64,000 nt of DNA from an uncultured bacterium (GCA_964596185.1 CAZQUE010000014.1:5576-69575), one strand, 5' to 3'; positions 8,045 through 33,724 are shown, numbered from the stretch's first letter. Translations and numbers: made by a program. Notes: a model not told the origin generated them from the letters alone.

Positions 8045-8073
8045 TTGCACTTGCCTGCATCTAAAGTTAGAAT
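8045..8073 (+). promoter_or_regulatory. Putative sigma70 promoter for the a2M-pbpC operon
   Basis: TTGCAC (8045-8050)-N17-TAGAAT (8068-8073); GAGGTG SD before ATG 8105. Confidence 0.55.
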
Positions 8074-8104
8074 GTCGGCAGAAAGAAATCAAGAGGTGCG
8101 GCAA

Positions 8105-13684: not shown

Positions 13685-13687
13685 GGT

Positions 13688-17306: not shown

Positions 17307-17841
17307 GGCGAACCTTTCTTTTGCGGGCGATCTAAAACAGGATCTAGAGTATTACCAGGAACAACTTCGGCAGAACCCGAAAGATCCCAACGTCAATTAT
17401 AACATGGGGCAGGTTTATTTCTTCATGGGCAAAACTGATGAAGCGATCCGCTATCTCGAGCGAGCTATTTACCTCAACGATAAAGACAATGAAGCCATGC
17501 TCAAACTTGCTTCCATTTACCGAAAAATCGGCCATCTATCCGAGGCTTTGCGGTTGTTGAAAAATGCTGCCCGGATCGATGATTCAAATAGTGAAATCTG
17601 GTATGAAACCGGGGTCGTGTATTCTGATCTGGCTGATTATCAGGCTGGCATAGAAGCCTTTCAAAAAGCTTTGCATTTAAGTCGTTCCGAGGAACAGAAA
17701 TTCCTGATAATCTATTATACTGGTCTGCTGCATCTAAGTAATCGTGACTGGGAAAACTATTCCGATTGTCTGCGGCGCTTGCGGCCGGCTCCAAGCTATT
17801 ACAGTGAACTTGAAAAACTTGGGCGACTTTGGAAAAATTGA
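17239..17841 (+). CDS. Exported tetratricopeptide-repeat protein (start could be 17248, 17263 or 17296)
   Basis: Repeated TPR patterns (NPKDPNVNYNMGQVYF, AMLKLASIY, IWYETGVVY...AGIEAFQKAL); signal-like N-terminus ending SFA-G. Confidence 0.8.
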   Translation: MKNMNARIMTNSNLLLFLLMLFMANLSFAGDLKQDLEYYQEQLRQNPKDPNVNYNMGQVYFFMGKTDEAIRYLERAIYLNDKDNEAMLKLASIYRKIGHLSEALRLLKNAARIDDSNSEIWYETGVVYSDLADYQAGIEAFQKALHLSRSEEQKFLIIYYTGLLHLSNRDWENYSDCLRRLRPAPSYYSELEKLGRLWKN

Positions 17842-18503
17842 TGCTGAATTGCCGTTGCGTATTTTGAATAGCTGATCTGCTCAATTTGCAAGTTTTGTAA
17901 TAACTGAATTATTGATTGAGGAATTCCTGTATAGGATTTTATTTCGAAGATTATCGGCTGCTTTTGCATCATTGAAATTGCCGACATGTTTATGCTGGCG
18001 AGATCATTGAGTAGTTGCGGTGAAAAGCTTGCAAAACCCTGATCAAATGTAAGTCTAAACCCGAAATTTTCCGGGCTCATCCAGGCTTTTCTCCGGTAAA
18101 AAACGGTTGTTGTTGGCTTCAGCAGCAACTTGAATTGTTTTAAGCGCTCGTTTAAGTCTAGGTTTGTGGCGAAATTTTCTATCTCAGATAAGTTGAGAGT
18201 AGAGCTGGTTTTGCTAACCAGGTTGCCATTTCTTTCTTTCTGCTCAAGTGTCGGGGAATGCCAGCTCCCCTCGCCGGGCCGGTAAGCTCGCAGCCTTATT
18301 TTCCTTTTGCTGAATTCGCCATTGATTTTGTCGTGATAAAATTTAAGATGTGGAGTGTCGAAGTATATACTAAGAATATCGTAAGCCCCGGCAATGCCAT
18401 TTTTGTCCGGGATACAAAACTGGCTGATCGATTTTTCCAATTCAATCATTTGTTTTAAGGTGATAAAAAATTTTAACTCGTAATAGGGTTTGATTCGACT
18501 CAT
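17799..18503 (-). CDS. VTC (polyphosphate polymerase) domain protein
   Basis: YELKF, SIYFDTP, KRKIRLRAY, LEQK, FYRRKAW, RLTFD, FEIK, YSKY. Start set at ATG 18503, overlapping the CotH stop (ATGA). Confidence 0.85.
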   Translation of the reverse strand: MSRIKPYYELKFFITLKQMIELEKSISQFCIPDKNGIAGAYDILSIYFDTPHLKFYHDKINGEFSKRKIRLRAYRPGEGSWHSPTLEQKERNGNLVSKTSSTLNLSEIENFATNLDLNERLKQFKLLLKPTTTVFYRRKAWMSPENFGFRLTFDQGFASFSPQLLNDLASINMSAISMMQKQPIIFEIKSYTGIPQSIIQLLQNLQIEQISYSKYATAIQHQFFQSRPSFSSSL

Positions 18504-20233
18504 TTCTTGAGGTCCTGCCATGGATGGATTACCTTTGCGCAAGGTAAGGCTGAATATTCATCTGTTGGATTGTCTACTTTTACTTCTATTGCCGAACCAG
18601 TAACGGCATTTCGGCAACTCCTGGTAAAGCTCTGCAAGAAATCTTCCAGTCTGCTTTCTTCAACTCCGATGACGTAGGTCTGATAATCAGGTTCCAGTAT
18701 GAAATTGCAGTATCGTCTTTCAAGAAGCAGCCAATGGGGAACCTGGTGAACGCTTTCTTTCAATCCCGGATGCAGGATTAAAGAAGAAAAAAAGGTTTTT
18801 TCAACCTTATCCAATTCTCCGTCAAAGTCCAGGTCTGGCAGAATATCTGACGAGTAATCGCCAAGTTCGCACAGTGTTGCGCATTGTCCGGCAGTTCTAA
18901 TTAAAACATGGCGGAATTTTCTATTCTCAATATTGCTGAAAGAATTGGTGACCATAATATGGGTTTCGTTTCGATCGAGCTCTGCTAGCAGAAATTCCCT
19001 GCGTTCATTCATGAAACTTAGCAGTCTTTTGCCGTCTGTTATCTGTGTTTGCGGTGAAACCGGTATTTTTCGTGAAAACAGAACCAACGGTATGTTTATT
19101 AAGGCGCTGGCGTAGGGCTCTTTGAAATACAGTGGTTTGAGAATCTTGAGATATTCTTCGACCAGAGAAGCGAGTTTTTCCGGAGCCAGTTCATTTTGCA
19201 GCAATTTGTAAAGCTCCAGGTTTCTTTTGTGCTGAAATTGCGGAATCCGAAAAAGAGCGTTTTGTAATGGTGTCAGGAATTCATTGACGGGTACTTCGAC
19301 ATCTATTTTTTCATGCTGGCCGGCCATGGCGGTGATGACGCCAAAGCCAGTCGAGTCGGCGATAGCGGGGAAGGCTTTTCCAGAATCATGATCAAAAATC
19401 AACAGGTTGCCGAGAAAATCATTGGTATGAATGCTGGCAATGGCGGTCATAAGAGCAGACCACCTGGCAAAAAAGACGTAATCGACCACTTGTTCGAGGT
19501 CTCGGACTCGAGTTAGTTCAACTGGGGTTGAAACCGATTCAAGTATTGTTTGAAGAGCTTTTTGCGCTTCTTTCTGTTTTTGTGGATCAGCGCTTTCTAT
19601 TTCCCAGAGGTCGTGTTGATGCCACATTCGCAGATTTCTAAGATTTCCTTCGATTATGCTATGGTTTTTAAATCCCTGATTGTTCAATGTTGCCAGGTTG
19701 ATCGGTTCAGCCTGATGATAAAGGCCTTTATAATCGCCGTTTAGTGTAATCGTGCAGATGCGGGTTCTTGGCGAGGGTAAGCCCTTGTCGTTGGCGATGT
19801 TGTCAGCTAATAGATTGGCAAGCATCGAGGCATCATCTGGATTTATGAAATCTACGATAAGATTGTTGGTGATTTTTAAATTTTCAGGTAATCTCAACCT
19901 CATTGAAGGTTTTCTGAAATCCCAATTCCAGGCATGTGTGCCTCTTATTCGTAGTGATGCACGCTTTTTGACTGGTAGTCTGTTAACCGTGAATTCAGCA
20001 TTCACAAAGGTATAGAGGCTGTGAGGTCTGTCAGAAAACCAGAAAGAAAAGTCTTCAAGGGTTACGCCTATGGTAAAGTGGTCGCAAGCAAATGGCTGGT
20101 AATGACCTTCAGAGATCTTTTCGGGTCGGGATGGATCAAGCTTCTCTGGCAGTAAAAAGTAGAGCAGAACGACCAAAAATCCTGCCAGTAAAAGCCTGAA
20201 CTGCAGGCTACGGTGATCGGCAAAACCCTTCAT
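18500..20233 (-). CDS. CotH-family kinase-like protein with N-terminal membrane anchor
   Basis: IRGTHAW...KPSMRL, YKGLYHQAEPI, HTNDFLGN; lies between DUF4956 and VTC genes, the known context of CotH homologues. Confidence 0.7.
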   Translation of the reverse strand: MKGFADHRSLQFRLLLAGFLVVLLYFLLPEKLDPSRPEKISEGHYQPFACDHFTIGVTLEDFSFWFSDRPHSLYTFVNAEFTVNRLPVKKRASLRIRGTHAWNWDFRKPSMRLRLPENLKITNNLIVDFINPDDASMLANLLADNIANDKGLPSPRTRICTITLNGDYKGLYHQAEPINLATLNNQGFKNHSIIEGNLRNLRMWHQHDLWEIESADPQKQKEAQKALQTILESVSTPVELTRVRDLEQVVDYVFFARWSALMTAIASIHTNDFLGNLLIFDHDSGKAFPAIADSTGFGVITAMAGQHEKIDVEVPVNEFLTPLQNALFRIPQFQHKRNLELYKLLQNELAPEKLASLVEEYLKILKPLYFKEPYASALINIPLVLFSRKIPVSPQTQITDGKRLLSFMNERREFLLAELDRNETHIMVTNSFSNIENRKFRHVLIRTAGQCATLCELGDYSSDILPDLDFDGELDKVEKTFFSSLILHPGLKESVHQVPHWLLLERRYCNFILEPDYQTYVIGVEESRLEDFLQSFTRSCRNAVTGSAIEVKVDNPTDEYSALPCAKVIHPWQDLKK

Positions 20234-20907
20234 CAGCTTTGATCTAATAGTATTTGAATGATGATTTCCGGGTTGATTTCTTTGCTGGCTTTGATCAGGT
20301 CAGCAGATTGATTCTCGCCGGAAAAAATTGCTTCGATAATTATTTCCGTTTTATCTGAATCGCAGCTTTGTCTGCTTAGAACCTGATGAGTTTCGGTAAG
20401 GCTGTCAATTTTTTCCATGAGCTTAAGATTTATTTCATCATTATTTGGGATGATTGCCTTAATCATCGATATCCCAGAGCTGTTGCTCTGGCTGAAAAAT
20501 CTTTCCAGAAATACGGAAAACATGATGAACAGACCGGTCGCTCCGGCAGCAATTGCCAGATATCCGCTGCCACAGGCCATGCCAACCGAAATCGCCATGA
20601 AAAGGTAGGCTAACTCATTGCTGCTTTTTATTGCAGTTCTGAACCTTATCAGGCTCAAAGCTCCGATTGCTCCGAAAGCACGGGCAAGGCTGTTGCCAAT
20701 TACTGCCATAATCAAGCTTACAACCGTGGCCAAAAGAACCATGGTTCGATAATGTTTAGGATCGGCGGCCTGGTGGCGGGCGGCTTTCTTCAGGACCAGG
20801 CTCAGAATTAATGAGAGAATGAAGGCCGTTACCATTCCTGCAAATACATCGGTGGCGCTAAGATCGATCATTTTTAATAAGGGCTGTGAAAGCTGTTTTT
20901 CTGGCAA
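20233..20907 (-). CDS. DUF4956-family membrane protein
   Basis: IGNSLARAFGAIGALSLIRFRTAIK...LAYLFMAISVGMACGSG signature; several TM helices plus C-terminal ACT-like region. Confidence 0.85.
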   Translation of the reverse strand: MPEKQLSQPLLKMIDLSATDVFAGMVTAFILSLILSLVLKKAARHQAADPKHYRTMVLLATVVSLIMAVIGNSLARAFGAIGALSLIRFRTAIKSSNELAYLFMAISVGMACGSGYLAIAAGATGLFIMFSVFLERFFSQSNSSGISMIKAIIPNNDEINLKLMEKIDSLTETHQVLSRQSCDSDKTEIIIEAIFSGENQSADLIKASKEINPEIIIQILLDQS

Positions 20908-21045: not shown

Positions 21046-21765
21046 ATGAAACACTTGAGAACTCTTCTGGCCTTGCTTGTTTTGCTCGTTTTGATGAGTA
21101 ATTGTCCTGCCAAGGGATGTAGCCTGGCAATTCACGACTGGAAACTGGTATTTTTTGTTAAAATTCCGGTTACAGCTCCGGTTTTTCCATTGGCCGAAGT
21201 CAATTTCTTAAATGCCAATTTTAAGAAACCGCCGGTTGATTCCGTTTACTGGTTATCAGGCCATAATTGGGTCTCATATTCCTTGTCCGGTTTTATTAAG
21301 GCTTTGCCGGGCTGGCCATCGAAGTTGACCTGGAACCTTGTCGATCGATCCAGTTCTGTTTTGAAAATGGGCCAGGATTTTCTTGCCAAAGGCCAGAATA
21401 ATCTCATTCTTGGCAGTGACAAGAATTTTCTGAAAGTCGCATTCTTCAGCGATGCCAATTCGGATTACAATTGCCATCAGCTGGTGATTATGCAAAATAG
21501 CAGAATCAGAGGGGTTCATGTCGACAAGGAAAAACCATGGGCCCAGGAATTGAACGGCATGTCCTGGGTGTCGCTGATCTTTTTTCAATTGCCTTACCCG
21601 GATCGGGTTCTTTCTCTTTCTGTGTTTCCCCATAATTTTACCAGAATCAGTCTTTTCGAAGATCATGATTATGTTGAATCCTTATTGTCTCAAAAGCTGT
21701 TAAGACGTAGACCTGATCTTGAGGTTGATCCATTCGTGTTTGATTTTCCGGAGTTACCAGATTAA
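21046..21765 (+). CDS. Exported hypothetical protein
   Basis: Signal-like N-terminus; stop overlaps the next start (TAATG). Confidence 0.7.
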   Translation: MKHLRTLLALLVLLVLMSNCPAKGCSLAIHDWKLVFFVKIPVTAPVFPLAEVNFLNANFKKPPVDSVYWLSGHNWVSYSLSGFIKALPGWPSKLTWNLVDRSSSVLKMGQDFLAKGQNNLILGSDKNFLKVAFFSDANSDYNCHQLVIMQNSRIRGVHVDKEKPWAQELNGMSWVSLIFFQLPYPDRVLSLSVFPHNFTRISLFEDHDYVESLLSQKLLRRRPDLEVDPFVFDFPELPD

Positions 21766-22421
21766 TGTGTAAAAAAATTTTTCACCTGTTAACATTTTTT
21801 GCTCTTGTGGCTTCTTCGTCTTTGTTGGCGCAAAGCTTCAGTTCTGCTGATTTTGAACGTTTGATCAACAAACACCCGATGATGAAAAACTATGACCCTG
21901 AATCGGGCCGGTTTAAAAACACGCCAAGTCAGGTAGTTCCAGTTGAATCTGTTCGAAATCAGATCGCTTCCGCTCAGCAGGAGATAGAAACTTTCGGTCG
22001 ACAGCGTGAAGAAATCCTCGCCAGTTCGTTGAACTCGGAAAATGCCGATGAAAACAAGGTCTGGGAAGAACTTTCATCGCTAAATGAAGAGATTTTCAAA
22101 AGAAAGCGGTTGTTGCTCGATCTTGGCGAACTTGAGGCTGCTAACGGCATACCGCCGGTATCAAGAGTTCTTTCTATTGCCCGTTCAATGATTCTTGATG
22201 TTAGAGAAGAGTTTCAAGATTCAGACGTGGTTCTGAATACTCTTCCAAGGTATTTTGCAGCTCCGCCTCAATTTATGCGCAACCCTTTGCAGGAATTTTT
22301 CTTTAACCCTGACAGTAAAATTACATTGCTAAAATATCTTCGCGAAAACCACAGGGTTGGGTTGCTGTTTCCGGCCGTTGTTCAGCCAATCCTTATCGGG
22401 GAAAGGAAAAAAACTAAATGA
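21765..22421 (+). CDS. Exported coiled-coil protein, divergent Skp/OmpH-like paralogue 1
   Basis: Signal peptide; ADFERLINKHPMMKNYD, coiled coil, DVVLN, matching motifs in 22418 and 25319. Confidence 0.6.
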   Translation: MCKKIFHLLTFFALVASSSLLAQSFSSADFERLINKHPMMKNYDPESGRFKNTPSQVVPVESVRNQIASAQQEIETFGRQREEILASSLNSENADENKVWEELSSLNEEIFKRKRLLLDLGELEAANGIPPVSRVLSIARSMILDVREEFQDSDVVLNTLPRYFAAPPQFMRNPLQEFFFNPDSKITLLKYLRENHRVGLLFPAVVQPILIGERKKTK

Positions 22422-23359
22422 ATTTTGGAAAAAGACTGTTTTTGTCGATGATTGTCTTTGTTTTGTTAAACTGCTCATCGGCTTTTGCTGAAATTCGTAT
22501 TGCTAAGGTCGACCTGGGGTTGGTTGCAAGTGTTCATCCGCAAATGGCCCTGTTCGATTTTGACCGGATGGGTTTTTACAAAGTTGCTCCAGGTTTGACG
22601 CAAGTTCAGTTCGAGACAGAAGTTAACAAGCTCAGATCAAGTGCGCCAACCCAGGACTGGACAAAAATGTCGGCCAAACTCAGAGCGAATATCGAAGCTC
22701 TTGAAAAGCAGAAAGCTGGCCTGCTCGAACGTTTGAACGGTGCAGATATGAACACCGGCAAACAGGTCGAGAAAAAGCTTGAAGAAATCGCCAGAGAAGA
22801 AGAGAAAATACGTGGGCAGCTTTACGATATCGAATATCAGCAAAATTGTCCTGATCTGACTTCCCCGGATGAGACCAGAAAAACTCTAAACGCCATTGAG
22901 AGCGAGTTGATGCTTGAATTAAAGGCTTTGGCAGATGAAATGAAATATGATCTGGTGCTTAATTCTTCTATAACCGTGCCGTTTAACTACCCACAACGCT
23001 ATAAATCCGGTTCCCAATACGGCCTCGGAATCCCAGGAATCGATTTCAGCCTTTTTTACTCGTTTCTGGCAAATCGCGAGCACGTGTTGGATTCAGATGA
23101 AAACCCAAATTCCAGGAATCTGATCAACTGGCTTGAGTTGGTCAGATATCCGGATGCCATGAATCTTTTGCCTTTGAAGCCTTACCCGGTAGTTCTTAAG
23201 GGCGGCGATGACATTTCATCGGCCCTTGTTGAAAGAATTTATAAAAAACATCAGGTTTCCGCGAAGGTAATCGAGTCGGTTCATTCAATCCTGGCAATTG
23301 TGAAAGATCATGACAGGAGATTTGACTCTGACCTCGAAAGTCTGGTCGTCCCCAAGTAG
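22418..23359 (+). CDS. Exported Skp/OmpH-like protein, paralogue 2
   Basis: IAKVDLGLVASVHPQM; long coiled coil; LKALADEMKYDLVLN; GGDDISSALVERI, resembling Skp N- and C-terminal strands. Confidence 0.65.
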   Translation: MNFGKRLFLSMIVFVLLNCSSAFAEIRIAKVDLGLVASVHPQMALFDFDRMGFYKVAPGLTQVQFETEVNKLRSSAPTQDWTKMSAKLRANIEALEKQKAGLLERLNGADMNTGKQVEKKLEEIAREEEKIRGQLYDIEYQQNCPDLTSPDETRKTLNAIESELMLELKALADEMKYDLVLNSSITVPFNYPQRYKSGSQYGLGIPGIDFSLFYSFLANREHVLDSDENPNSRNLINWLELVRYPDAMNLLPLKPYPVVLKGGDDISSALVERIYKKHQVSAKVIESVHSILAIVKDHDRRFDSDLESLVVPK

Positions 23360-23369
23360 GGTACAGACA

Positions 23370-23387
23370 TTGGCATCAAATTTGCTT
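23370..23387 (+). promoter_or_regulatory. Putative sigma54 (RpoN) -24/-12 promoter
   Basis: TTGGCATCAAATTTGCTT: GG (23372-73)-N10-GC (23384-85), followed by AGGGAG SD and ATG 23409. Confidence 0.7.
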
Positions 23388-23408
23388 AACTATACTTAGG
23401 GAGATAAT

Positions 23409-24218
23409 ATGTACAATACCGGTAAACGTTTCAAAGGATTTACACTCGTCGAAATTCTGATTGCGGCGAGCATTTTATCAATGTTCATTGCCGGCGTTTT
23501 CTCTTTTTATCGCATGGGTAGCCGCATGTTCACAGCGGGATCCTGGCGGTTGCAAAAGCAGAAAGAAGCAGAACGTTTTCTGAATCTGCTCAAAGAAAGA
23601 ATCGAACAGGCTTCCAATGCCTCCGGAATCAACCCAGCTGGAACTCCACAGGTGGTTGTATCCGATAGCACCTTTGTTACCGTCAAAAACAATACAGAAG
23701 TTGCAAGCCTGACTGCCGATACCAGGCTGTTGCTCTTCAGTGTTTGTAAACCGGACATGTCGGTTTTTGGCGCAAATGTCGGTCCTGGCACCGGCCCCGG
23801 TTTGATTATGTATCATTGTCTTCTCGCCCGACCCAACGAAAAAAATCTTTACACTCTATATTTGCATGCTGACACCACAAAAAATGCCCATAATGGTATA
23901 GATTATTTCAATTCTACTGCTGATTTTGAACCGGATTTAACCAAGTTCAGTTCGCCCCTTGGCAATTTCAATGCCGCTCCCGCCGACTTTTCGCTGATAC
24001 GCGCACCCTATACCGCCAAATTAAGCGATGTGCTGACCGCAAGTTTCAGTGTTGAAATTGCCTCTGGAACCGATGGTATGACGGAAACAGAGAAAGTAAT
24101 CGGTTTGAGCATTACCATGCAGCACCCGAAATATCCCGGAACCACTGTGAATCAAGGAATCAAGGCAAAAATCGACTTCTCGGTCAAGGTAAATGAGCTC
24201 GATCTGGGAGGGTTTTAA
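23409..24218 (+). CDS. Type IV pilin/pseudopilin-like protein (PilW/GspJ-like)
   Basis: Class III signal KRFKG^FTLVEILIA with Glu+5 and hydrophobic helix. Confidence 0.85.
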   Translation: MYNTGKRFKGFTLVEILIAASILSMFIAGVFSFYRMGSRMFTAGSWRLQKQKEAERFLNLLKERIEQASNASGINPAGTPQVVVSDSTFVTVKNNTEVASLTADTRLLLFSVCKPDMSVFGANVGPGTGPGLIMYHCLLARPNEKNLYTLYLHADTTKNAHNGIDYFNSTADFEPDLTKFSSPLGNFNAAPADFSLIRAPYTAKLSDVLTASFSVEIASGTDGMTETEKVIGLSITMQHPKYPGTTVNQGIKAKIDFSVKVNELDLGGF

Positions 24219-24219
24219 T

Positions 24220-24816
24220 ATGAGGAAAATTTTATCCAGATTGAATCGACGGCGTGCGATGAGTTTGACAGAAATTATTCTGGCGATGGCTTTGCTGGCT
24301 ACCGCTTTTATTCCTATCATTGGAGTTATGGGCACGTCGATCAAGGCCACAGACAAAGACGATCGAACCATAAAAGCGGTTAACCTCTGTCAGGAAAAGC
24401 TAAATCAGGCTTTGCAGTTTCCCTTCGGCATACTCGAGCCCGCTGCCAACCAAAGCAAATCCTATGGTTCATCAGCACTCGAGACTTTAAAATCAAGCTC
24501 CGATGCGAATGGAATTATTCTTCGAGTTGGCCCGGATAGCATTCTTGATCCTGAAACTGGAAACAAATTTGAATTCAAGGCTGAGTTGACCGTGACTGAT
24601 CGGCCAGGCTCATTTAAAGTCCCAATGTATGACCCATTTGAAAAGGCAAACAATTCGGGAGATCCCTCGAAATGGGGCTGGAGTGAACAGGATAAGGCCT
24701 ACGAAGGTATGATTTACGAATATTCCATGAAGATTACCTGGCAGGATAAAGGTGAAGATCGGGAAAAATTCTATACTCTCTCTACTTTCAAATCGAAAGT
24801 GAGGGATACCAAATGA
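24220..24816 (+). CDS. Type IV pilin/pseudopilin-like protein (PilV/GspI-like)
   Basis: RRRA^MSLTEIILAMALL with Glu+5; SD GGGAGG before ATG 24220. Confidence 0.75.
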   Translation: MRKILSRLNRRRAMSLTEIILAMALLATAFIPIIGVMGTSIKATDKDDRTIKAVNLCQEKLNQALQFPFGILEPAANQSKSYGSSALETLKSSSDANGIILRVGPDSILDPETGNKFEFKAELTVTDRPGSFKVPMYDPFEKANNSGDPSKWGWSEQDKAYEGMIYEYSMKITWQDKGEDREKFYTLSTFKSKVRDTK

Positions 24817-25316
24817 AAAAGTTTAACCGAAGAAAAGGCATGGCTTTGATTCTTGCTCTTGTTTTTGCCGTAGTTCTGCTGCAGATGGCAATTGCCTATA
24901 GCGGCATGACGCGCGGAACCAAAAACCAGACGGTTCAGATCGATGAGAGAATCAAACTCGATTATCTTGCTCATGGCTTGACTGAGCTTGCGTTGCTGAA
25001 ATTTCAGCTTTATCCGGGTGACTTTTACGCCTGCTGGGAAGCACACAAACTCGGTGATTCATCATATCTGCAGACTTTTACTACTTCAGCCAACACCAAT
25101 GAATTCAGAATACTCAATTTTGACAAATCGGTTTCAAGTTTCAACGATCAGAAGATCAATGTTGTTCTGGCCAGCATGTCGATATTCACTGACAACAAGT
25201 GGAATACTGAAGCTCTTTTCATTCAGGCTGAAGCAAATTATCAGGATCAGTTTGGCCGAATCATTTCCAAAGACGCGATTAGAATAGTTTCCGTAGAAAG
25301 GATCACCAAGAACTAA
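24813..25316 (+). CDS. Pilin-like protein lacking Glu+5 (PilX/GspK-like)
   Basis: RRKG^MALILALVFAVVLL; loss of E5 is the hallmark of PilX/GspK; ATGA overlap with the previous gene. Confidence 0.7.
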   Translation: MKKFNRRKGMALILALVFAVVLLQMAIAYSGMTRGTKNQTVQIDERIKLDYLAHGLTELALLKFQLYPGDFYACWEAHKLGDSSYLQTFTTSANTNEFRILNFDKSVSSFNDQKINVVLASMSIFTDNKWNTEALFIQAEANYQDQFGRIISKDAIRIVSVERITKN

Positions 25317-25318
25317 AC

Positions 25319-26296
25319 ATGGGTAAAGGGATGAACAGACAAAACAAAAAAATGGTGTTTTACCTGGTAATCGGCTTGCTACTGAGCCTGGGCTCATGCA
25401 TTGAAAGCCATGCCGCCGCAAAAGTGCTGATCGGAAAAGTTGATCTCAAAGCATTGGTGCTTCTGCATCCTGGAATGCGCTCCTACAACCCCTATCTGCA
25501 GGCTTTTCGCGTCGACCCGGCAAAGGTTTCCGCCAGCGTCGCCAACCAGAAGTCAGAAGAGCAGCGCCGGGAAATCGATGAGCTTAATGCCCGAATCAGA
25601 TTGCTTGAAGGTCGAATTCATGAGACTCGCAGAAACTACAATCGTGAAATGGAAAGAATTGCCAAGCAATATCTCGACAAGATCGATACTTTGGCTACCG
25701 GGCCAAGAGCATTGAAAAGAAAAGAATATGATATAGCCCAGAATCGCACTGATGCTTCTTTCAACGCCAAATTACAGTCTTACTCGGCCCAGCTTGAACA
25801 GGCCGAAGATCGCCGTAGTAAACTGGAAAAAGTGGCCTATCATGTCGGCTACACCGACCCTGAAGCTACACAGAAACAGTTCGCGGCAATAATCAACGAA
25901 ATTCGCCAGTATACGCGACAAATAGCTACCAACAAGGGCATTGAAGTTGTACTGAACTCGAAAAGCCGCGAATTGAAAGCGACTCTTCAGGCACAATCGC
26001 AGGTTCTCGCCCCTGAGCTGAATTATGATAAGCTGTTTGCAATTCCTTTCCCCAACGAAATTCGCAACGATTCCGCCGCTATAAATGGTTATTACCAAAA
26101 CATCACCAGTCTCGCCGCCAATTGGCTGGCACATGGTACGAGTATTCTCGAACCATTCTCCACCCAAATGCTCGACAATGACATTTTTATCGGTGGCGTC
26201 GACTTGACCGTCGAAGTTCTCGCAGCTATTTTCCGTTCGTATAAAATCGACAATAATATCGGCAATGCCGTTATTCAGTCCATATATAGTAATTAA
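25319..26296 (+). CDS. Exported Skp/OmpH-like protein, paralogue 3 (start may be 25331)
   Basis: IGKVDLKALVLLHPGM; long coiled coil; RQIATNKGIEVVLN; GGVDLTVEVLAAI. Confidence 0.65.
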   Translation: MGKGMNRQNKKMVFYLVIGLLLSLGSCIESHAAAKVLIGKVDLKALVLLHPGMRSYNPYLQAFRVDPAKVSASVANQKSEEQRREIDELNARIRLLEGRIHETRRNYNREMERIAKQYLDKIDTLATGPRALKRKEYDIAQNRTDASFNAKLQSYSAQLEQAEDRRSKLEKVAYHVGYTDPEATQKQFAAIINEIRQYTRQIATNKGIEVVLNSKSRELKATLQAQSQVLAPELNYDKLFAIPFPNEIRNDSAAINGYYQNITSLAANWLAHGTSILEPFSTQMLDNDIFIGGVDLTVEVLAAIFRSYKIDNNIGNAVIQSIYSN

Positions 26297-26327
26297 TGCT
26301 TTTTCAGGTGTATGAAGGAGGGAGTAT

Positions 26328-29300
26328 ATGAGATCAGTCAGGCTTAAGAGGTTTATTCTGCTGCTATTGCTCGGCTTTGTCTGTGTTTCGGCCTTTGCGG
26401 CTTTGAAACCTGAATACCGCCGTAATGGTGAGTGCTATCTGTTGATCGGTGAAGGGCCCGTTTCAATGCGTGGTATTTATCGTCTCAACAATCCCGAGGC
26501 CAACAAATATTTCGATCCGCCGAAGTATTTGTTCAAGCCTGACAGTTCAATCGGTTTTTCAGTCGACCTCGATCGTAAGATCTATACTTTCTCTGAAAAG
26601 GTCGTTCCCGGTTACGTTCTCCTGGGAGAACCCCTGAAACGCCAGGTTCTCGATTCGGGCAGCACTGACCTGGCCGACTACGGTTACCACCAGTATGTTC
26701 ACTATGACCACCGTTCCTGGGGTAAGAACACCGATATTTATCGAACCGGTCCGGTTGGCCGCGGAATAAGAAGAAGCGGTGGCTCTACCTGGCCTTACTT
26801 CAAGTCAGCTGGTCCTGGTAAAGCTATTGCTGCCCCCTCCGGAAACCCTCTTCCTGACGTGCCTTCTATCCCTCTGGGCATTTATTCCGGAAAAAGCTGG
26901 TATGAAATTCCCAATGGCGCATGGTTCTCGAGCTGGCGCACCAAACCTTGCCAATCGAGTCGCCCTGGGCCTGCCGGTTACTTTTACGTCGTTTATGGTG
27001 ACAAGGTTGAAGGCCAACCCCATAACTGGACTCTCTATACTTATACTCCAGACAACGTTGCCGCCGACGCGCCCAACTACACTTCAGCCGCCGGACAGGT
27101 CGTAGCGGTTTCCTATGATAAAAAAATCAGCCGCCAGATCTTTGCAGGTTGTATCGATGGTTGTGGTGGTGCAAGTGGCTCGGGTGGCGGTGTTGCCGAT
27201 CCGATGATCACTGACCTTGCTTTCATGCCTCCGATCAAATCACAACCTTCGCGAACCTATTTCTACTCTCGCCCGGTAGGGGATATCAACTATACCGTTA
27301 CCAAAAACAAAAATATTTATGCTCCACCGAATCCAACCGGTAATCCGATTATCGGAACTCCTGCAAGTCAGGATACTTATTGGATCGGGGTTTCAATGCG
27401 TGACGTAAGTTCTGATTACGTTTACTGTATCGGAACCAACGACATAAAAAACTGGTATAAACAAGCTACGACGTCAACTGCTCCAAGTATGAGTATCTCG
27501 GCAGTTGCGGTTTCGAACCAGTGGAACCAGAAGGGTGGTATCATTTTTGCCTATGATAAACCCGCAAAAATGGTCTACAAATTCATCCGCTATGAAAATG
27601 ATCCCAATGAACCGCCGATTTCAAAAACCAGATATGAAGGTATTGACGTTTCGGATCTGGTCAACTTGATTCAGGCCGAAGCGAACAGCGAAATCGACGA
27701 TATCAAGGCCGATGGTTTCGGCAGTCTGTTCTTCGCGATGACCTATCCTTCAAAAAATGTCGCTACCTATGATCCTCGTAGCAACTTCAAGTTGAATGAT
27801 ACGATCAGACTATATTATGACCCAAATCAGGATCCTGCAGAAACAGAATGGTCTGGATGGCTGATTTATCGGCAACAATATGGTAAAGCGGTTTTTGAAC
27901 GCAGTATCTACAGCTCGACTCCCCAGGAAATCGGTCGCAAGGTTTTTGCCGAAAGATATTACAACCTTAATATCCGCATGGCACCAGAAGGTTTGGCCCA
28001 GCTCGCAATATCTGGCCCATTCCCAAATGGCAATGTTGAGCCTATTCTCGCTTCCTGGTCTGCCAAAATCGGTAATGGCGACGCTGTTTTGACGGCTTCA
28101 GATTTTTCTTACGGCAGCCTGGGCCTTTATTATGAATACAACTATGGTGATCCCGGCCGGGCAAAACTTGCAGTTATCAATGTGCCCACGCCACCAGAAG
28201 TCATAAGTCTTGCAGGTAAAAAATCGTTCCTGGATATCTGCGGTCCATACACAGACATTCCAATTTCGACTGACATTAACAGCACCATGCAAAATCAGAA
28301 CCTGATCAAACCCGCACCAAGTATTCTTGACGGTGATCAGATCTATTATTTCATGGTTGAAAACTATCCGCTTACCACAGGGGCCTGGAACCCCAATGAC
28401 CAGCCCGACTGGGACGGCGACAGCCGCCAGGGTGGTTTCATCACTTCGATCAGTGACACCAACTCCTCGACCAATGGTGGTAGCGTGGCTTATCGCTGGC
28501 GCACCTGGATGGTCGAAGACATGTTCCAAAGACCTGTATTCCCGCCAGAACCCTATCCGGCAACTCCGTCTCCGCGTGACGGTTCAGATACCGGCCAGGA
28601 AAATTTCACCTTCTTCTATACTCCGGTTGGTGGAAAATACATCATCACTTGCCAGGTTATATATGACTGGTATGATTACGATCTTTTGAACTTTGGTGAT
28701 ACTATCGATGACCTGCCGGCGATCTTCAGGCCTAATGTCAAGGCTGTGCCGGCTGCCGCCGGCGCATCGGTTCTGCAGTCTGCCTCAAGTCAGCTTTCCA
28801 GCATAATGACCACGAATCCTTTCAAATTCATGCAGGCTTCGGCCACCCAGTATATCGATTACATCACTGAGAAAGTTGAAAGTGGTATTGACGATCCTTA
28901 TTATGCCTGTTACCCGATCGTTGCTGCTGGTATCGCTACTCCGCCCACATATACCTACCAGTTTATCGCCAACATCGACAGATGCGATGGCTGGTTTCCA
29001 AATGACAAAGACGATGCCTCGCATTGGGTATTTCACGACAAAAACTGGCCGGAGGCCGATCATGGTCTTGAAGCCGGAAAACAGTATTTCTGGCGCACCT
29101 GTCTGGCCTCGCAGTCAGCGTTTTTTGCGGATATCAGCAAGACCACCGGCGCTGGTGTTCCGTATCGCAATTTCATTGTCGATATGATGCAGAATCCTCA
29201 CAAAGATTCAAAGGGACGTAACAATCCTCTTTTTGTTAATGATCGAGATAACATCAAATTTGACAACAAGGGCGATGACCTTCGCTGGCTTGAAAAAGAC

Positions 29301-31157
29301 AACGCCGATAACGCCATCCGTTTGAATGCTTATCTTGAGTATCAGGTTCCTGACGTGAACGGCGACCCGAAAATGGTTAAATTGCAACTTCTCGCATCTG
29401 GTTCAAATGCTCTCCCGCTAAGCTTCCCAATTAATGCTTCTACTTCAATGGATCTTCCGCCTACAGATCCATTCATCGCGACTCTCACCATCGAAATGAG
29501 TCGCTGGATATCTTACGATATGTGGGTTAAAAATAAAAATGGCGTGGATATGTTCCCGGTGCGAAATCTTCCTAAAGAATTTAAGGTTTCTGGTAAGACC
29601 AACGTTTTGATCGTCGATCGCCAGGCACCCAAGATTCTTTACGATTTCACCAATCCGGTCAATCTGTTTGCCGATGCCGGATTCCCATTGGCACAGGGTG
29701 TTGGCCCCAATGGCGGCAATCCTGCTTCGATAACCTTCAGACTATCCGACAATAACCCCTGGGAAGCGGTTGACTCCGTTTGCGGTATTACCAACAACAG
29801 TTTGTGGGCTCAGAACTTTACGCACAACAATACTGCGCCGACAAAGGCACCAACCGCAACGTTCAACTACAAGCCGGTTTTCGCCAAAGCTTTGAAGCGC
29901 AGGGTTTCTCTGTCATTTGACCGTGCCTGTCGTCTGGATTCCGGCAAAGTAATGTTCTTCCCGCCTGATCAGTCTGCTTTGCTCAGTCCGGGCCAGTATA
30001 GAGACTTTGCCGACAGTTTCGGCGAACTCTATGTTCACAAATACGTTCTTTCCGGCACCAGTGCCGTGCCATCTGAAAACCGCTTGCAGAAAGACTTCCA
30101 GTCAACGAAGGAAACGGTTGGCTTGAGCACCAAGTATTTTGCAACCATCGGTTTCAGGATGCCTCTGAGTTTCATCATGCCAAATTCGTATGCTTCAACC
30201 GACGCAGCGAGAAGGCGATTGCCCAAGGGATACGCCAACAATACCCCAGGTTATGACGATGGCGGCAAGATCAGGCCCTACAAGTTCTATCTGTCGGCCA
30301 CCGACTCTTCAGGTAATGCCTTGTCAAACAAAATGTTGAATATTGCATTGCATCCCCGCGACGTTCATAAACCTGAACCACATGGTTTCTTTACTGAATT
30401 CAAGGGCAACACAACTACCTACTTCCCGATCTGGGCAGTGGCCACAGACAGTCTCGACCCGGACAATTCAACCAGAGAAATTTCAGGAACGACCTTGAGC
30501 GAAACTTTCTTTGACAGCAACGACTGGCTTCCTGGTGCGGACGGTAAAATCAACAGCAAAGATGCAACTAATCACGTGGCATTCTCTTACAAATCATTGC
30601 CGAAGCTGTCTGATGACATTGTTACCGATTATAATAGTTCCCATGCCGATTATGCTGCTCTCGTCGCAACTAAATTGCCGCCAATGGCTATCGAAGATAA
30701 CGTTGAATTTTCGATTGGATGCGGCGTCAGCGACAATGCCGGCCTGGCAACGGCTACTCTGACCTTTAAATACTTCGACAACAAGGAGAACGAGGTCAGC
30801 AGATCGGTTGTTTCTCGCTACACCAGTGCAATGGAAGTCGCACCGGCAAATACCTCTACAATCAAGATTGCCTCAACCACTTTCGAGGTTCGAGGTTTGT
30901 TCCGCGGCAAAGCAGAACAGTTCCCGATGTCGATTCCGGTTACCATTATTGCCCGCGATAACGCCCGCGATTGGGATTACTACACTGGAAAAGGCGGAAC
31001 CCTGGTTGATGTCAACAATCCCTGGAGCGACTGGAAGTGGGGCTCTTTCCACAAAGGTGGCGATAAAAACAACGTCAGGAATTTTGAAACAAGTATTCCG
31101 GTATTTGGCAGCAGTCTTATCATTCGAACTATCGATAAGGGTGTGCGCAACAAATAG
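26328..31157 (+). CDS. 1609-aa secreted beta-rich protein, putative pilus-tip adhesin (PilY1 position)
   Basis: Strong SD AAGGAGG; signal peptide ending AFA-A; rich in P/G/S/T/Y/W/D; propeller-blade-like and Ig-like motifs; last gene before a terminator. Confidence 0.75.
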   Translation: MRSVRLKRFILLLLLGFVCVSAFAALKPEYRRNGECYLLIGEGPVSMRGIYRLNNPEANKYFDPPKYLFKPDSSIGFSVDLDRKIYTFSEKVVPGYVLLGEPLKRQVLDSGSTDLADYGYHQYVHYDHRSWGKNTDIYRTGPVGRGIRRSGGSTWPYFKSAGPGKAIAAPSGNPLPDVPSIPLGIYSGKSWYEIPNGAWFSSWRTKPCQSSRPGPAGYFYVVYGDKVEGQPHNWTLYTYTPDNVAADAPNYTSAAGQVVAVSYDKKISRQIFAGCIDGCGGASGSGGGVADPMITDLAFMPPIKSQPSRTYFYSRPVGDINYTVTKNKNIYAPPNPTGNPIIGTPASQDTYWIGVSMRDVSSDYVYCIGTNDIKNWYKQATTSTAPSMSISAVAVSNQWNQKGGIIFAYDKPAKMVYKFIRYENDPNEPPISKTRYEGIDVSDLVNLIQAEANSEIDDIKADGFGSLFFAMTYPSKNVATYDPRSNFKLNDTIRLYYDPNQDPAETEWSGWLIYRQQYGKAVFERSIYSSTPQEIGRKVFAERYYNLNIRMAPEGLAQLAISGPFPNGNVEPILASWSAKIGNGDAVLTASDFSYGSLGLYYEYNYGDPGRAKLAVINVPTPPEVISLAGKKSFLDICGPYTDIPISTDINSTMQNQNLIKPAPSILDGDQIYYFMVENYPLTTGAWNPNDQPDWDGDSRQGGFITSISDTNSSTNGGSVAYRWRTWMVEDMFQRPVFPPEPYPATPSPRDGSDTGQENFTFFYTPVGGKYIITCQVIYDWYDYDLLNFGDTIDDLPAIFRPNVKAVPAAAGASVLQSASSQLSSIMTTNPFKFMQASATQYIDYITEKVESGIDDPYYACYPIVAAGIATPPTYTYQFIANIDRCDGWFPNDKDDASHWVFHDKNWPEADHGLEAGKQYFWRTCLASQSAFFADISKTTGAGVPYRNFIVDMMQNPHKDSKGRNNPLFVNDRDNIKFDNKGDDLRWLEKDNADNAIRLNAYLEYQVPDVNGDPKMVKLQLLASGSNALPLSFPINASTSMDLPPTDPFIATLTIEMSRWISYDMWVKNKNGVDMFPVRNLPKEFKVSGKTNVLIVDRQAPKILYDFTNPVNLFADAGFPLAQGVGPNGGNPASITFRLSDNNPWEAVDSVCGITNNSLWAQNFTHNNTAPTKAPTATFNYKPVFAKALKRRVSLSFDRACRLDSGKVMFFPPDQSALLSPGQYRDFADSFGELYVHKYVLSGTSAVPSENRLQKDFQSTKETVGLSTKYFATIGFRMPLSFIMPNSYASTDAARRRLPKGYANNTPGYDDGGKIRPYKFYLSATDSSGNALSNKMLNIALHPRDVHKPEPHGFFTEFKGNTTTYFPIWAVATDSLDPDNSTREISGTTLSETFFDSNDWLPGADGKINSKDATNHVAFSYKSLPKLSDDIVTDYNSSHADYAALVATKLPPMAIEDNVEFSIGCGVSDNAGLATATLTFKYFDNKENEVSRSVVSRYTSAMEVAPANTSTIKIASTTFEVRGLFRGKAEQFPMSIPVTIIARDNARDWDYYTGKGGTLVDVNNPWSDWKWGSFHKGGDKNNVRNFETSIPVFGSSLIIRTIDKGVRNK

Positions 31158-31177
31158 CTGAAACTGCACAAAAACAT

Positions 31178-31210
31178 GGGGCTGTCTCGAATGAGGCAGC
31201 CCCTTTTTTT
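31178..31210 (+). terminator. Rho-independent terminator
   Basis: GGGGCTGTCTC-GAAT-GAGGCAGCCCC then T7. Confidence 0.85.
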
Positions 31211-31230
31211 AATGCTTCTTTATATTGGTT

Positions 31231-32280
31231 TTATTTTGTCTTTGCGTCCTGCAAGTAGGCCAGCAACAATTTGCAGGTTGCTTCAAGACCTTTTAAATGT
31301 GTGCGTTCGTTCCCATGTGACGCGGAGACGCCGGGCCCAATCAAGCCTACTTTGGCATCGAGTCCGGCGCGAAGGGCTGCTGATCCGTCAGATCCGTAGA
31401 AGGGAAAAACATCGAGCTTGTAATTGACCTTATATTTTTCAGCAAGTTTGACCAGGCGCTTGCGCAAGTTCAGATCGTAAGGGCCGGTAGAATCTTTTAC
31501 GCATACAGAAACCGAAAATTCATCGCCGGCCACTCCGTCTCCTACCACTCCCATATCGACAACCAGCAATTCTTCGATTGAAGCAGGCAAGCCGGCACAG
31601 GCACCATGTCCAACTTCTTCATAATTTGAAAAGAAAAAAACGACTGGTAAATTATTCAGAACTTTAGCGCCAAGCTTTAGAAAAGCTTCGATCATGCAGG
31701 CGCAGCCTGCCTTGTCATCAAGAAAATGGCTTTTGACAAAGCCGGTATCGGTATATTCAAAGCCGGAATCAAAAGCGATAAAATCACCAATGGCAATGCC
31801 GAGCTTCTGGGTTTGTTGCTGATTGGTAACTTCCGCATCGAGGCGAATATGCATCGTATTTTCATTTCTTGGGCTTTCTTCGGCTTTTCTGTTCACGTGC
31901 ACTGCGGGATTGTCCAAGATCAAACTGCCGGAAAAAATCTGACCGTTTTCGGCAAAAACCCTGACCGTATGCCCTTCAAAAGCCTGCAAAAGAGGCCCAC
32001 CTATCCTGGTGAAGCCGAGAGTGCCGTTACTTTTGATTTCTTTAACCATCAGGCCTAGAGTATCGACATGGCCGGCAACTGCAATTTTGGGATCAGGGTG
32101 ATTGCCGACGAGCAGAGCTCCTTTATTGGTAAAGCGTGTTTTTATGCCGGATTTTGCGGCAAGTTTTTCAATGTGCCGCAAGGCAGCTTCGGTCATTCCC
32201 GAAGGCGAATAAATCAGGGAAAGGTCGCGTAAAATAGATATCACTTGAGGAGTTTGCGTCTTTTTAGTCGATTTGGGCAT
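31231..32280 (-). CDS. M42-family metallo-aminopeptidase
   Basis: GHVDTLG, LDDKAG, YEEVG, VDMG, SHGNER metal-ligand motifs. Confidence 0.9.
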   Translation of the reverse strand: MPKSTKKTQTPQVISILRDLSLIYSPSGMTEAALRHIEKLAAKSGIKTRFTNKGALLVGNHPDPKIAVAGHVDTLGLMVKEIKSNGTLGFTRIGGPLLQAFEGHTVRVFAENGQIFSGSLILDNPAVHVNRKAEESPRNENTMHIRLDAEVTNQQQTQKLGIAIGDFIAFDSGFEYTDTGFVKSHFLDDKAGCACMIEAFLKLGAKVLNNLPVVFFFSNYEEVGHGACAGLPASIEELLVVDMGVVGDGVAGDEFSVSVCVKDSTGPYDLNLRKRLVKLAEKYKVNYKLDVFPFYGSDGSAALRAGLDAKVGLIGPGVSASHGNERTHLKGLEATCKLLLAYLQDAKTK

Positions 32281-32424
32281 GGGTTATTCCTTTCTATTGA
32301 ACAGATGCAAAAATACCAGATCAGCAAGCTTAAATCAATGTCATCAACAGGCAAAACCTGCAGTGCTTGCAGAGCTTTGTTTTCTGGGATAACATGTTTT
32401 TATGCAAAGCAGCGGAGGAATCAC

Positions 32425-33720
32425 ATGTTAAAATTTCCGAAGTTTTTTTTGGCCATGCTTCTCATGGTCGGCAACATTTTGGGTGCGCAGCAGACACAAC
32501 AGGTGCAACAGGGTTTGCAGGTGTCTCCTCCCGGTGATACAGAATTGATTACCCCGGTAAATTTGCAGCCTCTCGATCTTGAAGAATTGGCGAGGCGAAA
32601 GGGTATCAACAACCAGAGTCCGGCAAGAAACATCGTCATTCTTTCCGGTTTCGGTTTTATTGAAGACGCGGCGGCCATTTTCCGATCTACAGGAATCAGG
32701 AAACTCCAGATTGACGAGATGGAAAATTTTGCCCTGGTTTTACCCAGATTTGTAAGTGAAAGTGAACATGCCCAGGTTGTCAGGCTTGCTGATCTCCTGG
32801 TCGGCGATGGTCGGGCAGTTGGCCTGGTTTCGGATAGTAACTTCAAATGTGCTTCCGCTTGCGAGTTCATGAAGATTCAAACGGAAAAATTGTTTGAAAA
32901 TGCCCGTATGGCGTTGACGCTTGGTAGCTTTTCCACTGAAGAAGATCGAGATGAAACGGTTAGAAAGTTTTGTCGTCGTAACATTGAGTATGCGAGAAAT
33001 CGCAAAGATTTAAACCGTCTTTTTTCAGCGAAAGCAGAAAAGATCGTCGGTGCTTTTGATCGAAATATTAATCTGGTCAAGGAAGATCAGACTCAGCCAT
33101 TTTTCGATGAACTGGTAACGGCTTGTCTTAGCCGTCTTCCGGTTGCAGGAGATGGTTTTGTTTTGTTAATCGGAGCAGGAGCTGCCGAGCAGGCGGCGGC
33201 TGAAGGTCGCTATTTTGATATGCTCGAGCACCTGCGAGTTCAGGAAAAGGTTTTGCATCAGATCAATTATTTTGTATCAGGTCGCAAAGATACTTTGGTG
33301 CTGTTGATTCAGGACTCAGGAAAAATGCGCTGGAAATATGGGAAAGATTTCAAGCTTTCAAGTTTCATCGCAGACTTGTCTTTGCTGGAAAGTGCAATGA
33401 AGGCTGAAGATATAAGCAAATATTTGTTTGAAAGTCCCCGGAATTACAGCCAGTTGCTGAAAAATGTCGACGCAGGACGGATCAATGAATTAATCGCGGC
33501 AAAGGATAAATTGGCTCTTTATAAATATTTACAGGACAGCTTGAAGCTCAGTTATGATTTTCGTGCCGAGGTTGCCGGCAGTGAAACCAGATTGCCAGGA
33601 TTTGCGGTGTTTTCGCGTGGTCTTGGAACTCAACTTTTTAGAGGAATGATCACTTTTGAAGATTTTGTCAATTATCTGTCATTGATTTCAGGTGTGAGCA
33701 GCAAATCAGATCAGGAGTAG
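32425..33720 (+). CDS. Exported alkaline-phosphatase-fold protein with degenerate active site
   Basis: GGAGG SD before ATG 32425; ARNIVILSGFG, GRAVGLVSD, GFVLLIGAG, DTLVLLIQD, VFSRGLGTQLFRG follow the order of PhoA-family motifs, but the ligands are substituted. Confidence 0.55.
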   Translation: MLKFPKFFLAMLLMVGNILGAQQTQQVQQGLQVSPPGDTELITPVNLQPLDLEELARRKGINNQSPARNIVILSGFGFIEDAAAIFRSTGIRKLQIDEMENFALVLPRFVSESEHAQVVRLADLLVGDGRAVGLVSDSNFKCASACEFMKIQTEKLFENARMALTLGSFSTEEDRDETVRKFCRRNIEYARNRKDLNRLFSAKAEKIVGAFDRNINLVKEDQTQPFFDELVTACLSRLPVAGDGFVLLIGAGAAEQAAAEGRYFDMLEHLRVQEKVLHQINYFVSGRKDTLVLLIQDSGKMRWKYGKDFKLSSFIADLSLLESAMKAEDISKYLFESPRNYSQLLKNVDAGRINELIAAKDKLALYKYLQDSLKLSYDFRAEVAGSETRLPGFAVFSRGLGTQLFRGMITFEDFVNYLSLISGVSSKSDQE

Positions 33721-33724
33721 GGTT

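Follow-up and report, generated by a model that had tools for sequence, protein, structure and literature searches.

The subject of this analysis is a candidate export module in the DNA of an uncultured bacterium (GCA_964596185.1, CAZQUE010000014.1:5576-69575), a stretch of 64,000 nucleotides, here termed the window, in which eight open reading frames (ORFs) on the plus strand, designated genes A to H, fill positions 21046-31213 (Table 1). The ORFs are translationally coupled, neighbours either overlapping by 1-4 nt or being separated by 1-49 nt, and they form one operon with a terminator at its end. The initial annotation of the window had listed in this interval three pilins, three chaperone-like proteins resembling Skp and one giant secreted protein that ends before a strong terminator; all of these are present, with a Sec signal on the giant, and the list was incomplete by one gene, A, at the head of the operon.

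Table 1. Genes and terminator of the cassette (positions counted from the first nucleotide of the window; a slash marks the cleavage site of a signal sequence; aa, amino acids).
Feature	Position	Strand	Description
Gene A	21046-21765	+	239 aa; exported, probable lipoprotein
Gene B	21765-22421	+	218 aa; shortest and most degenerate Skp-like paralogue; signal peptide, HP-x-M motif
Gene C	22418-23359	+	313 aa; Skp/OmpH-like, periplasmic; HP-x-M motif; insertion before the C-terminal strand
Gene D	23409-24218	+	269 aa; prepilin-type minor pilin, KG/FTLVE; largest of the three; PilW/GspJ-sized
Gene E	24220-24816 (ORF open from 24193)	+	about 198 aa; prepilin-type minor pilin, RRRA/MSLTE; PilV/GspI-sized
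Gene F	24813-25316	+	167 aa; pilin-like, RRKG/MALILALVF, without Glu5; proposed PilX/GspK-type cap pilin
Gene G	25319-26296	+	325 aa; Skp/OmpH-like; basic Skp-like part and acidic insertion of about 75 aa
Gene H	26328-31157	+	1609 aa, mature form about 176 kDa; Sec-exported, beta-rich, multi-domain; without known relatives
Intrinsic terminator	31178-31213	+	11-bp stem (8 G-C pairs), 4-nt loop, TTTTTTT

The distribution of the cassette was surveyed by a scan with one genome per species, which yielded 41 loci; ORFs were called in these loci and sorted with family hidden Markov models (HMMs). Where the records name a taxon, it is in nearly all cases Riflebacteria, Rifleibacteriota or Ozemobacter, and the cassette families show 26-90% identity across the loci. 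In nearly every complete Riflebacteria locus the eight families are all present and fall into the blocks A-B-C, D-E-F and G-H. The order is ABC-DEF-GH in most loci, ABC-GH-DEF in L017, L018, L023 and L027, DEF-GH-ABC in L031 and L034, and DEF-GH in L030, L035 and L042, where C-B-A lies on the opposite strand; gene A accompanies B and C in all of these arrangements, and G lies immediately upstream of H in every complete cassette. The cassettes are also multiplied within genomes: L001:10001-25187 contains a full cassette, a second G-H-D-E-F set and the start of a third giant (about 1789 aa), that is, three giants in tandem, and single metagenome-assembled genomes (MAGs) carry up to three loci (L033, L036 and L041 in one; P0090 and P0117 together in another). 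Because the same families co-occur in nearly all of the 41 independent loci, the clustering is far beyond chance, and there is very little room for doubt that the module is real and its genes functionally linked. The linkage of the Skp-like genes to pilins and a giant ORF, which the initial annotation had proposed from one locus, is conserved phylum-wide. The host is an uncultured wastewater bacterium of the phylum Riflebacteria, and near-identical DNA was found in sludge and wastewater metagenomes. An additional conserved gene in the flanks was considered and rejected, since the clusters of flank ORFs represented local synteny of close relatives (M42 peptidase, AddAB, penicillin-binding protein (PBP)) and antisense artefacts. 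Upstream of the full cassette that is most distant within the main family, a divergent gene (L003:5571-7403 and L004:2242-4074, minus strand) encodes a 610-aa protein with a faint match to the pilin-related ComGC_C model.

The three consecutive pilin signals noticed initially, FTLVE, MSLTE and a MALIL lacking Glu5, are all present in D, E and F, and each is conserved in 30-40 orthologues. D scores above the curated cut-offs of Pfam N_methyl (PF07963; 29.4 bits, cut-off 21.2) and of TIGR02532 (20.5 bits, cut-off 16.3), and its orthologues keep Gly at position -1, Phe at +1 and Glu at +5. As for E, the ORF is open from 24193 (207 aa), and the start is most likely the ATG at 24220 (198 aa), as in the orthologues; residue -1 is Ala here and Gly in most orthologues, Glu5 is invariant across 22 orthologues, matches to the N_methyl (14.1 bits, below threshold), GspI, XpsI and ComGE models are weak, and the E and D family profiles align with 90% probability over the N-terminal helix (hhalign). 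Both D and E carry a class III signal peptide with Glu5. Among 23-37 orthologues of F, at least 90% have Gly at -1, all have Ala at +2 and none has Glu5, and F is always the third gene within the D-E-F block. When family profiles of D, E and F were searched against PDB sequences, the matches were to pilin N-terminal helices, and the globular parts matched nothing. The pattern of two pilins with Glu5 and one without it is that of GspI/J/K and of PilV/W/X, and F is therefore proposed as a putative cap pilin of the PilX/GspK type. GspK is the largest of GspK, GspI and GspJ, whereas F is the smallest of the three pilins here; the sizes of D, E and F are close to those of PilW, PilV and PilX. PilX and GspK, which also lack Glu5, are placed at the tip, where they touch PilY1 or the substrate (PMC7541494).

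The coiled-coil proteins B, C and G are paralogues, as the initial annotation had them. In comparisons of family profiles with hhalign, G and C were related with 99.9% probability (E value 1.7e-31) and B and C with 98% probability (E value 2.9e-13, 201 columns), and an iterative HMM search converged on a single set of 114 ORFs whether B, C or G was the query. Signal peptides are visible in the sequences of all three (cleavage of C, AFA/EI), and the HP-x-M motif, which we do not know from canonical Skp, is invariant in the three families just after the first strand. The Pfam family OmpH (PF03938) was matched by 25 of the 26 C-family members (best E value 8.7e-9) and by 21 of the 30 G-family members (best 3.1e-6), and is by far the commonest family match of C and G, no other family recurring comparably. 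The C protein of the window itself matched OmpH with an E value of 0.0023 (18.6 bits, cut-off 32.4), and its own B and G did not match; in the B family, OmpH was matched by none of the 22 members. The structure of G was predicted as an AlphaFold2 monomer from a 30-sequence alignment (predicted local distance difference test (pLDDT), 85.4). The model has strands at residues 37-41 and 62-64, a hairpin of helices 72-119 and 127-171, a helix at 181-205 and a strand at 208-213, which are followed by inserted helices at 216-284 (about 75 aa) and then by a strand and helix at 290-307 (GG-x-DLT-x-EVL). It displays the Skp order of elements plus an insertion, the agreement being topological and not a scored match. 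By eye, we take the N-terminal strand (IGKVDL), the strand behind the third helix (VVLNS) and the C-terminal GG-x-DLT-x-EVL of G to correspond to IAIVNM, LVVDAN and KDITADVL of Escherichia coli Skp, respectively. OmpH membership of these proteins rests on family-level evidence and topology, not on curated thresholds; on this basis C and G are very probably diverged, Skp-derived members of the OmpH superfamily, and B is in our reading a further, degenerate Skp-like paralogue.

Likeness to canonical Skp/OmpH (PF03938; 1sg2) lies in the signal peptide, in the order of elements in G and in the family-wide OmpH matches of C and G, whereas the proteins of the cassette are about twice as long, stand outside a bamA-skp-lpxD context and, in the case of B and C, are acidic and not basic. 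Genes for the lipopolysaccharide (LPS) core and lipid A at 54.6-59.8 kb of the window (heptosyl-, Kdo- and lipid A acyl-transferases) imply that the host is diderm and has a periplasm. The OmpH-family affinity and a diderm host with LPS genes would also suit a housekeeping role, in which B, C and G were general Skp chaperones for outer-membrane proteins that lie beside pilins and a giant by chance. We consider this extremely improbable, since the cluster stands between VTC/CotH genes and an M42 peptidase gene and not near bamA or lpxD, since its members co-occur with the giant in the 41 loci, in rearranged orders and with several paralogous cassettes per genome, and since they diverge strongly from canonical Skp (OmpH scores below threshold, insertion). 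Charge complementarity within the cassette was also considered and rejected: G is basic, B and C are acidic and H is mildly acidic, which is inconsistent across the four proteins.

The initial annotation had further taken the three Skp-like proteins as one set, possibly a heterotrimeric cage. They do occur together in the main cassettes, which fits such a set, but the neighbourhoods split G-H from a mobile A-B-C block, and cassettes with only one or two Skp-like genes (the second cassette of L001, L046, L048, L054 and L055) do not require it. An obligate B:C:G heterotrimer was rejected because the Skp-like genes vary from one to three per cassette and A-B-C moves independently of G-H.

In gene A the signal peptide ends in Gly, Ala or Ser and is directly followed by an invariant Cys25 (xACSLAxHDW), and for this reason A is probably a lipoprotein; the alternative is cleavage by signal peptidase I that would leave an N-terminal Cys. 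In the alignment of 23 orthologues, C25, L27, H30, W32, D136, Q145, R155, E168 and P235 are invariant. Neither A nor its orthologues matched a Pfam or NCBIfam family.

H starts with a Sec (type I) signal peptide, MRSVRLKRFILLLLLGFVCVSAFA/A. Ser, Gly, Pro, Asp and Asn are abundant in the protein, Glu and Gln are scarce, and the mature form has 13 Cys. It has 78 full-length homologues (26-82% identity), most of them without a source name; the named ones come mainly from Candidatus Riflebacteria/Ozemobacteraceae MAGs, and a few records are labelled otherwise. H is conserved end to end without large indels, and no Pfam, NCBIfam (E value of 1 or less) or PDB sequence match was obtained with H alone or as a profile. 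In an AlphaFold2 model of residues 1-1200 (65-sequence alignment, pLDDT 85.4), H consists almost entirely of beta structure, including three pairs of very long strands, and the N-terminal module is folded into the first domain of the monomer (pLDDT about 88), not left as a free tail. Foldseek searches of this model against PDB and BFVD returned only low-probability matches to propellers, macroglobulins and phage tail proteins with a template modelling (TM) score of 0.11 or less; those of highest probability are generic propellers with a TM score of about 0.1, and no propeller is claimed for H. An outer-membrane beta-barrel similar to SprA was considered and rejected, as the model contains three long hairpins and no barrel and the C-terminus has no aromatic beta-signal. 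Residues 694-704 (28407-28439) form a nearly invariant D-W-D-G-D-x-x-x-G-G-F loop (D694, D696, D698, G703, F704) that resembles calcium-binding loops of the DxDxD type.

With a profile of the N-terminal part of H (residues 25-620), 119 proteins were retrieved from 1.8 billion representatives; among them are distant giants of 1340-1800 aa and a set of proteins about 550 aa long. Directly after the signal peptide, a conserved module (RNGE) is common to H and the distant giants. The proteins of about 550 aa (P0152-P0172, e.g., L052:8001-9671 and L047:726-2378) represent the N-terminal domain of H alone (profile positions about 11-590), and their neighbours include no Skp-like or pilin genes. In another Riflebacteria locus, L053, a signal-peptide protein, two Skp-like proteins, a giant and E-, F- and D-like pilins are followed by an A-like protein (FACNDSLHNW) at the end, and in L046 the order is E, F, D, two Skp-like genes and a giant; both loci represent ancient paralogous cassettes.

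Among known systems, the type IVa minor-pilin/PilY1 operons come closest in layout, and the GspIJK tip of type II secretion is second. The type IVa sets (fimU-pilVWXY1E of Pseudomonas and those of Myxococcus xanthus) are likewise stand-alone operons away from the machine genes, encode several prepilin-type proteins, the last one being without Glu5, and occur as several paralogous sets per genome, as do the Riflebacteria cassettes; M. xanthus has three such clusters, and PilY1 carries a type I signal peptide (PMC7541494). H resembles PilY1 in its type I signal and in the position of its gene, by the minor pilins and after the one without Glu5 (D-E-F-G-H or G-H-D-E-F in most loci). The differences are that three pilins are encoded here rather than four, that H has no beta-propeller of the PilY1/PilC type detectable with Pfam and no fold match for residues 1-1200, and that three Skp/OmpH-like genes and a probable lipoprotein gene are integral to the cassette. 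H is not a detectable PilY1 homologue, yet it occupies PilY1's genomic place.

The reading that we favour, although the balance for and against it is even, is that of a lineage-specific module accessory to a type IV filament machine (a type IV pilus or a related pseudopilus) encoded elsewhere in the genome, with H as the tip protein or cargo of D, E and F. We infer the physical interactions, the stoichiometry, the tip location and the machine used as follows. Prepilin peptidase would process D, E and F, which would then form a small minor-pilin complex with the Glu5-less F at its top, like PilX and GspK. H would cross the inner membrane via Sec and take the role of PilY1, a large non-pilin protein carried on, or expelled by, the minor-pilin tip. 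In the periplasm, the Skp-derived proteins, G above all, would bind H, either as a holdase that keeps this 176-kDa beta-rich protein competent for assembly or as a fixed docking scaffold or clamp on a defined segment, like SkpA for SprA in the type 9 translocon. A-B-C would be a second, separately movable block, in which A may tether the complex to the outer membrane or act there as its pilot protein. A specific partner is favoured over promiscuous chaperoning because of the HP-x-M motif, the insertion, the strict adjacency of G and H and the conserved N-terminal module of the giants. A fuller scenario, which we put forward tentatively and with less than even confidence, is that Riflebacteria, and in part Wallbacteria, have made Skp into dedicated partners of giant exported proteins, and that in the full cassette up to three diverged paralogues together with the lipoprotein hand H to a three-pilin tip.

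A number of observations weigh against the reading of H as a tip protein loaded by Skp-derived partners, and they are gathered in this and the next two paragraphs. The first concern the identity of the proteins. F matched no pilin, GspK or PilX model nor any other HMM family and showed no profile similarity to E, and for these reasons its assignment as a pilin is by motif and position only. No PilY1/PilC domain (PF05567) was found by sequence in H or in 15 homologues, and the top 50 Foldseek matches of residues 1-1200 do not include PilY1, residues 1201-1609 being judged by sequence only. The Foldseek search of the G model against PDB gave no significant match; Skp (1sg2) appeared with an E value of 0.54 and a TM score of 0.31 in a list dominated by long coiled coils, in which Skp, the type 9 secretion SkpA (8gl8 chains, not significant) and an OmpH-like protein of Caulobacter stood at E values of 0.5-1.3. 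The C family and an unverified E. coli Skp sequence gave an uninformative 6% probability in hhalign, with only the helix and strand before the insertion aligned, and PDB sequence searches with C and G, singly or as profiles, returned coiled-coil noise only. The Foldseek check on the G and H models that had been suggested at the outset brought no significant match to a solved Skp or any relative, and the initial claim of a Skp fold is supported for C and G by the OmpH matches and the topology of the G model, whereas B never matched OmpH. Neither of the two findings named at the outset as refuting the proposal, coiled-coil proteins devoid of a Skp fold or relatives unlinked to pilins and large secreted ORFs, was obtained. 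RNA support consists of two short contigs from one wastewater metatranscriptome, 26314-26567 (254 nt, the G/H junction) and 29753-29904 (152 nt, inside H), both without differences from the window; they are compatible with transcription of the operon and too little to claim it.

The second concern the machine. The scan of window ORFs, which covered most but not all of those of at least 150 aa in the 64 kb, revealed no domain of a pilus or type II secretion machine, no machine gene recurred in the flanks of 45 related loci when flank ORFs were clustered, and the cassette holds three pilins, not four plus a major pilin. These pilin genes can also be read as part of a type II secretion system (T2SS)-like apparatus, in which D, E and F would form a short pseudopilus tip that pushes H as a released substrate (e.g., an enzyme or an S-layer or matrix protein) through a secretin, the Skp-like proteins being substrate-specific chaperones. 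The number of pilins is in its favour, the GspK-GspI-GspJ tip likewise being a trimer with one Glu5-less cap that is proposed to touch the substrate, and PilY1 has been termed an analogue of T2SS substrates (PMC7541494). E has weak matches to the GspI and XpsI models, H is conserved over its full length without a variable adhesive end, and a Secretin_N gene adjoins the distant cassette L048. Nevertheless, the usual place of minor pseudopilin genes is a gsp operon that also encodes GspC-M, and here no gsp machine gene lies beside them; there are no significant matches to GspJ or GspK models, the cassette has no equivalent of GspH or GspG, no enzymatic domain is detectable in H by sequence or in the fold of residues 1-1200, and stand-alone minor pilins with a large protein are the pattern of type IVa pili. 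On this evidence a T2SS-like function seems unlikely to us.

The third concern giants without pilins. At L033:9959-14851 a homologue of H (1630 aa) stands alone between the ornithine carbamoyltransferase gene and the EF-Tu/NusG/L11/L1 genes, with no Skp-like or pilin genes within 10 kb, in a MAG that also has the full or partial cassettes L036 and L041. L048 has a giant and two Skp-like genes, and no pilin gene lies within 10 kb; L054 has two Skp-like genes and a 1747-aa giant with no pilins nearby, this giant being most similar to H in the N-terminal RNGE module and less so in two internal stretches. At L055:6884-13460, in a MAG of Candidatus Wallbacteria (a separate candidate phylum according to NCBI), one HP-x-M Skp-like gene lies directly upstream of a 1819-aa giant that has the RNGE module and a few internal stretches in common with H, and again no pilins are nearby. 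In L048, L054 and L055 alike a Skp-like gene comes ahead of the very distant giant, which speaks in favour of Skp-derived partners. The persistence of the Skp-like/giant pair without pilins in L048, L054 and L055 indicates that the link between Skp-like protein and giant is primary and the pilin link secondary; this pair is the oldest and tightest association, to which the main family and some old paralogues add the pilin trio and A. Together with the lone copy in L033, these pairs imply that a giant may need no pilin trio of its own. A 335-aa Secretin_N protein is encoded just upstream of the L048 cassette (L048:6483-7490, minus strand).

The age and tightness of this pairing would suit a stand-alone envelope complex, in which structural Skp-like proteins and lipoprotein A hold H at or under the outer membrane and the pilins serve as inner-membrane anchors or adaptors without an extended filament. 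The invariant HP-x-M motif and the insertion of about 75 aa, neither of which is known from canonical Skp, suggest a fixed partner and not promiscuous clients, and the RNGE module after the signal peptide of H and the other giants recalls the N-terminus of SprA clamped by SkpA. In the type 9 Extended Translocon, a trimer of SkpA, a Skp homologue, clamps the N-terminus of the giant SprA (PMC10994853), and the SkpA of Flavobacterium (PDB 8gl8) is extended relative to E. coli Skp, dedicated to export and a structural binder of a SprA segment (PMC10994853). SkpA belongs, however, to a different secretion system and phylum and is a homotrimer from the housekeeping skp operon, not encoded beside its partner, whereas here up to three diverged paralogues with the HP-x-M motif and the insertion are found per cassette. 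Moreover, conserved class III signals with Glu5 and a Glu5-less partner are hallmarks of filament subunits, in the monomer model the first domain of H takes in its N-terminal module, which is not a free tail, and H has neither beta-barrel features nor a C-terminal aromatic beta-signal. An envelope complex of this kind consequently appears improbable, and an accessory module of a type IV filament machine is retained as the favoured reading.

A small prepilin-type set encoded with one giant of unknown function also occurs in the Verru_Chthon cassette of Verrucomicrobia (TIGR02596, TIGR02598, TIGR02599 and TIGR02600), which comprises three prepilin-type proteins and a protein of more than 1400 aa and, to our knowledge, has no Skp-like genes. 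Membership in it was rejected: H matched neither TIGR02600 nor any other NCBIfam model at an E value of 1 or less, and D reached 17 bits with TIGR02599 (cut-off 256.5) through its pilin N-terminus. Literature searches found no published link of Skp/OmpH to minor pilins or PilY1 and nothing relevant on the Verru_Chthon cassette. Pilins encoded together with a giant follow a known logic, and what is new is the Skp-like set as an integral part, the lipoprotein and a giant that is an orphan in fold.

How large proteins of the PilY1 type stay competent and are loaded onto minor pilins is poorly understood, and we know of no dedicated periplasmic chaperone described for this loading; the cassette offers a natural system for dissecting it. 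If the scenario of dedicated Skp partners holds true, it would represent a chaperone-assisted loading step for type IV filaments, without a described counterpart. It would add a second case, after SkpA of the type 9 system, of the Skp scaffold recruited into an export apparatus. The analysis also defines new protein families, namely A, H and the HP-x-M Skp-like clade, as signature components of the envelope in an uncultured phylum commonly present in wastewater and anaerobic digesters.

The upstream neighbour of the operon, on the opposite strand, is a DUF4956-CotH-VTC cluster, and the downstream neighbour is an M42 aminopeptidase gene. The DUF4956-CotH-VTC trio lies at 17799-20907 (minus strand) and is followed by an exported 416-aa protein at 16056-17306; this cluster is recurrent in bacteria. 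At 8045-16054 (plus strand), a 1879-aa bacterial alpha-2-macroglobulin (A2M) is followed by a class A PBP with BiPBP_C, the classical A2M-PBP1c pair; macroglobulins are also among the weak Foldseek matches of H, and this A2M and H are unrelated by sequence. Further downstream, at 32245-35614 (plus strand), a 491-aa protein with a sub-threshold alkaline phosphatase match and a 629-aa protein with a weak KaiC/AAA_25 match are encoded.

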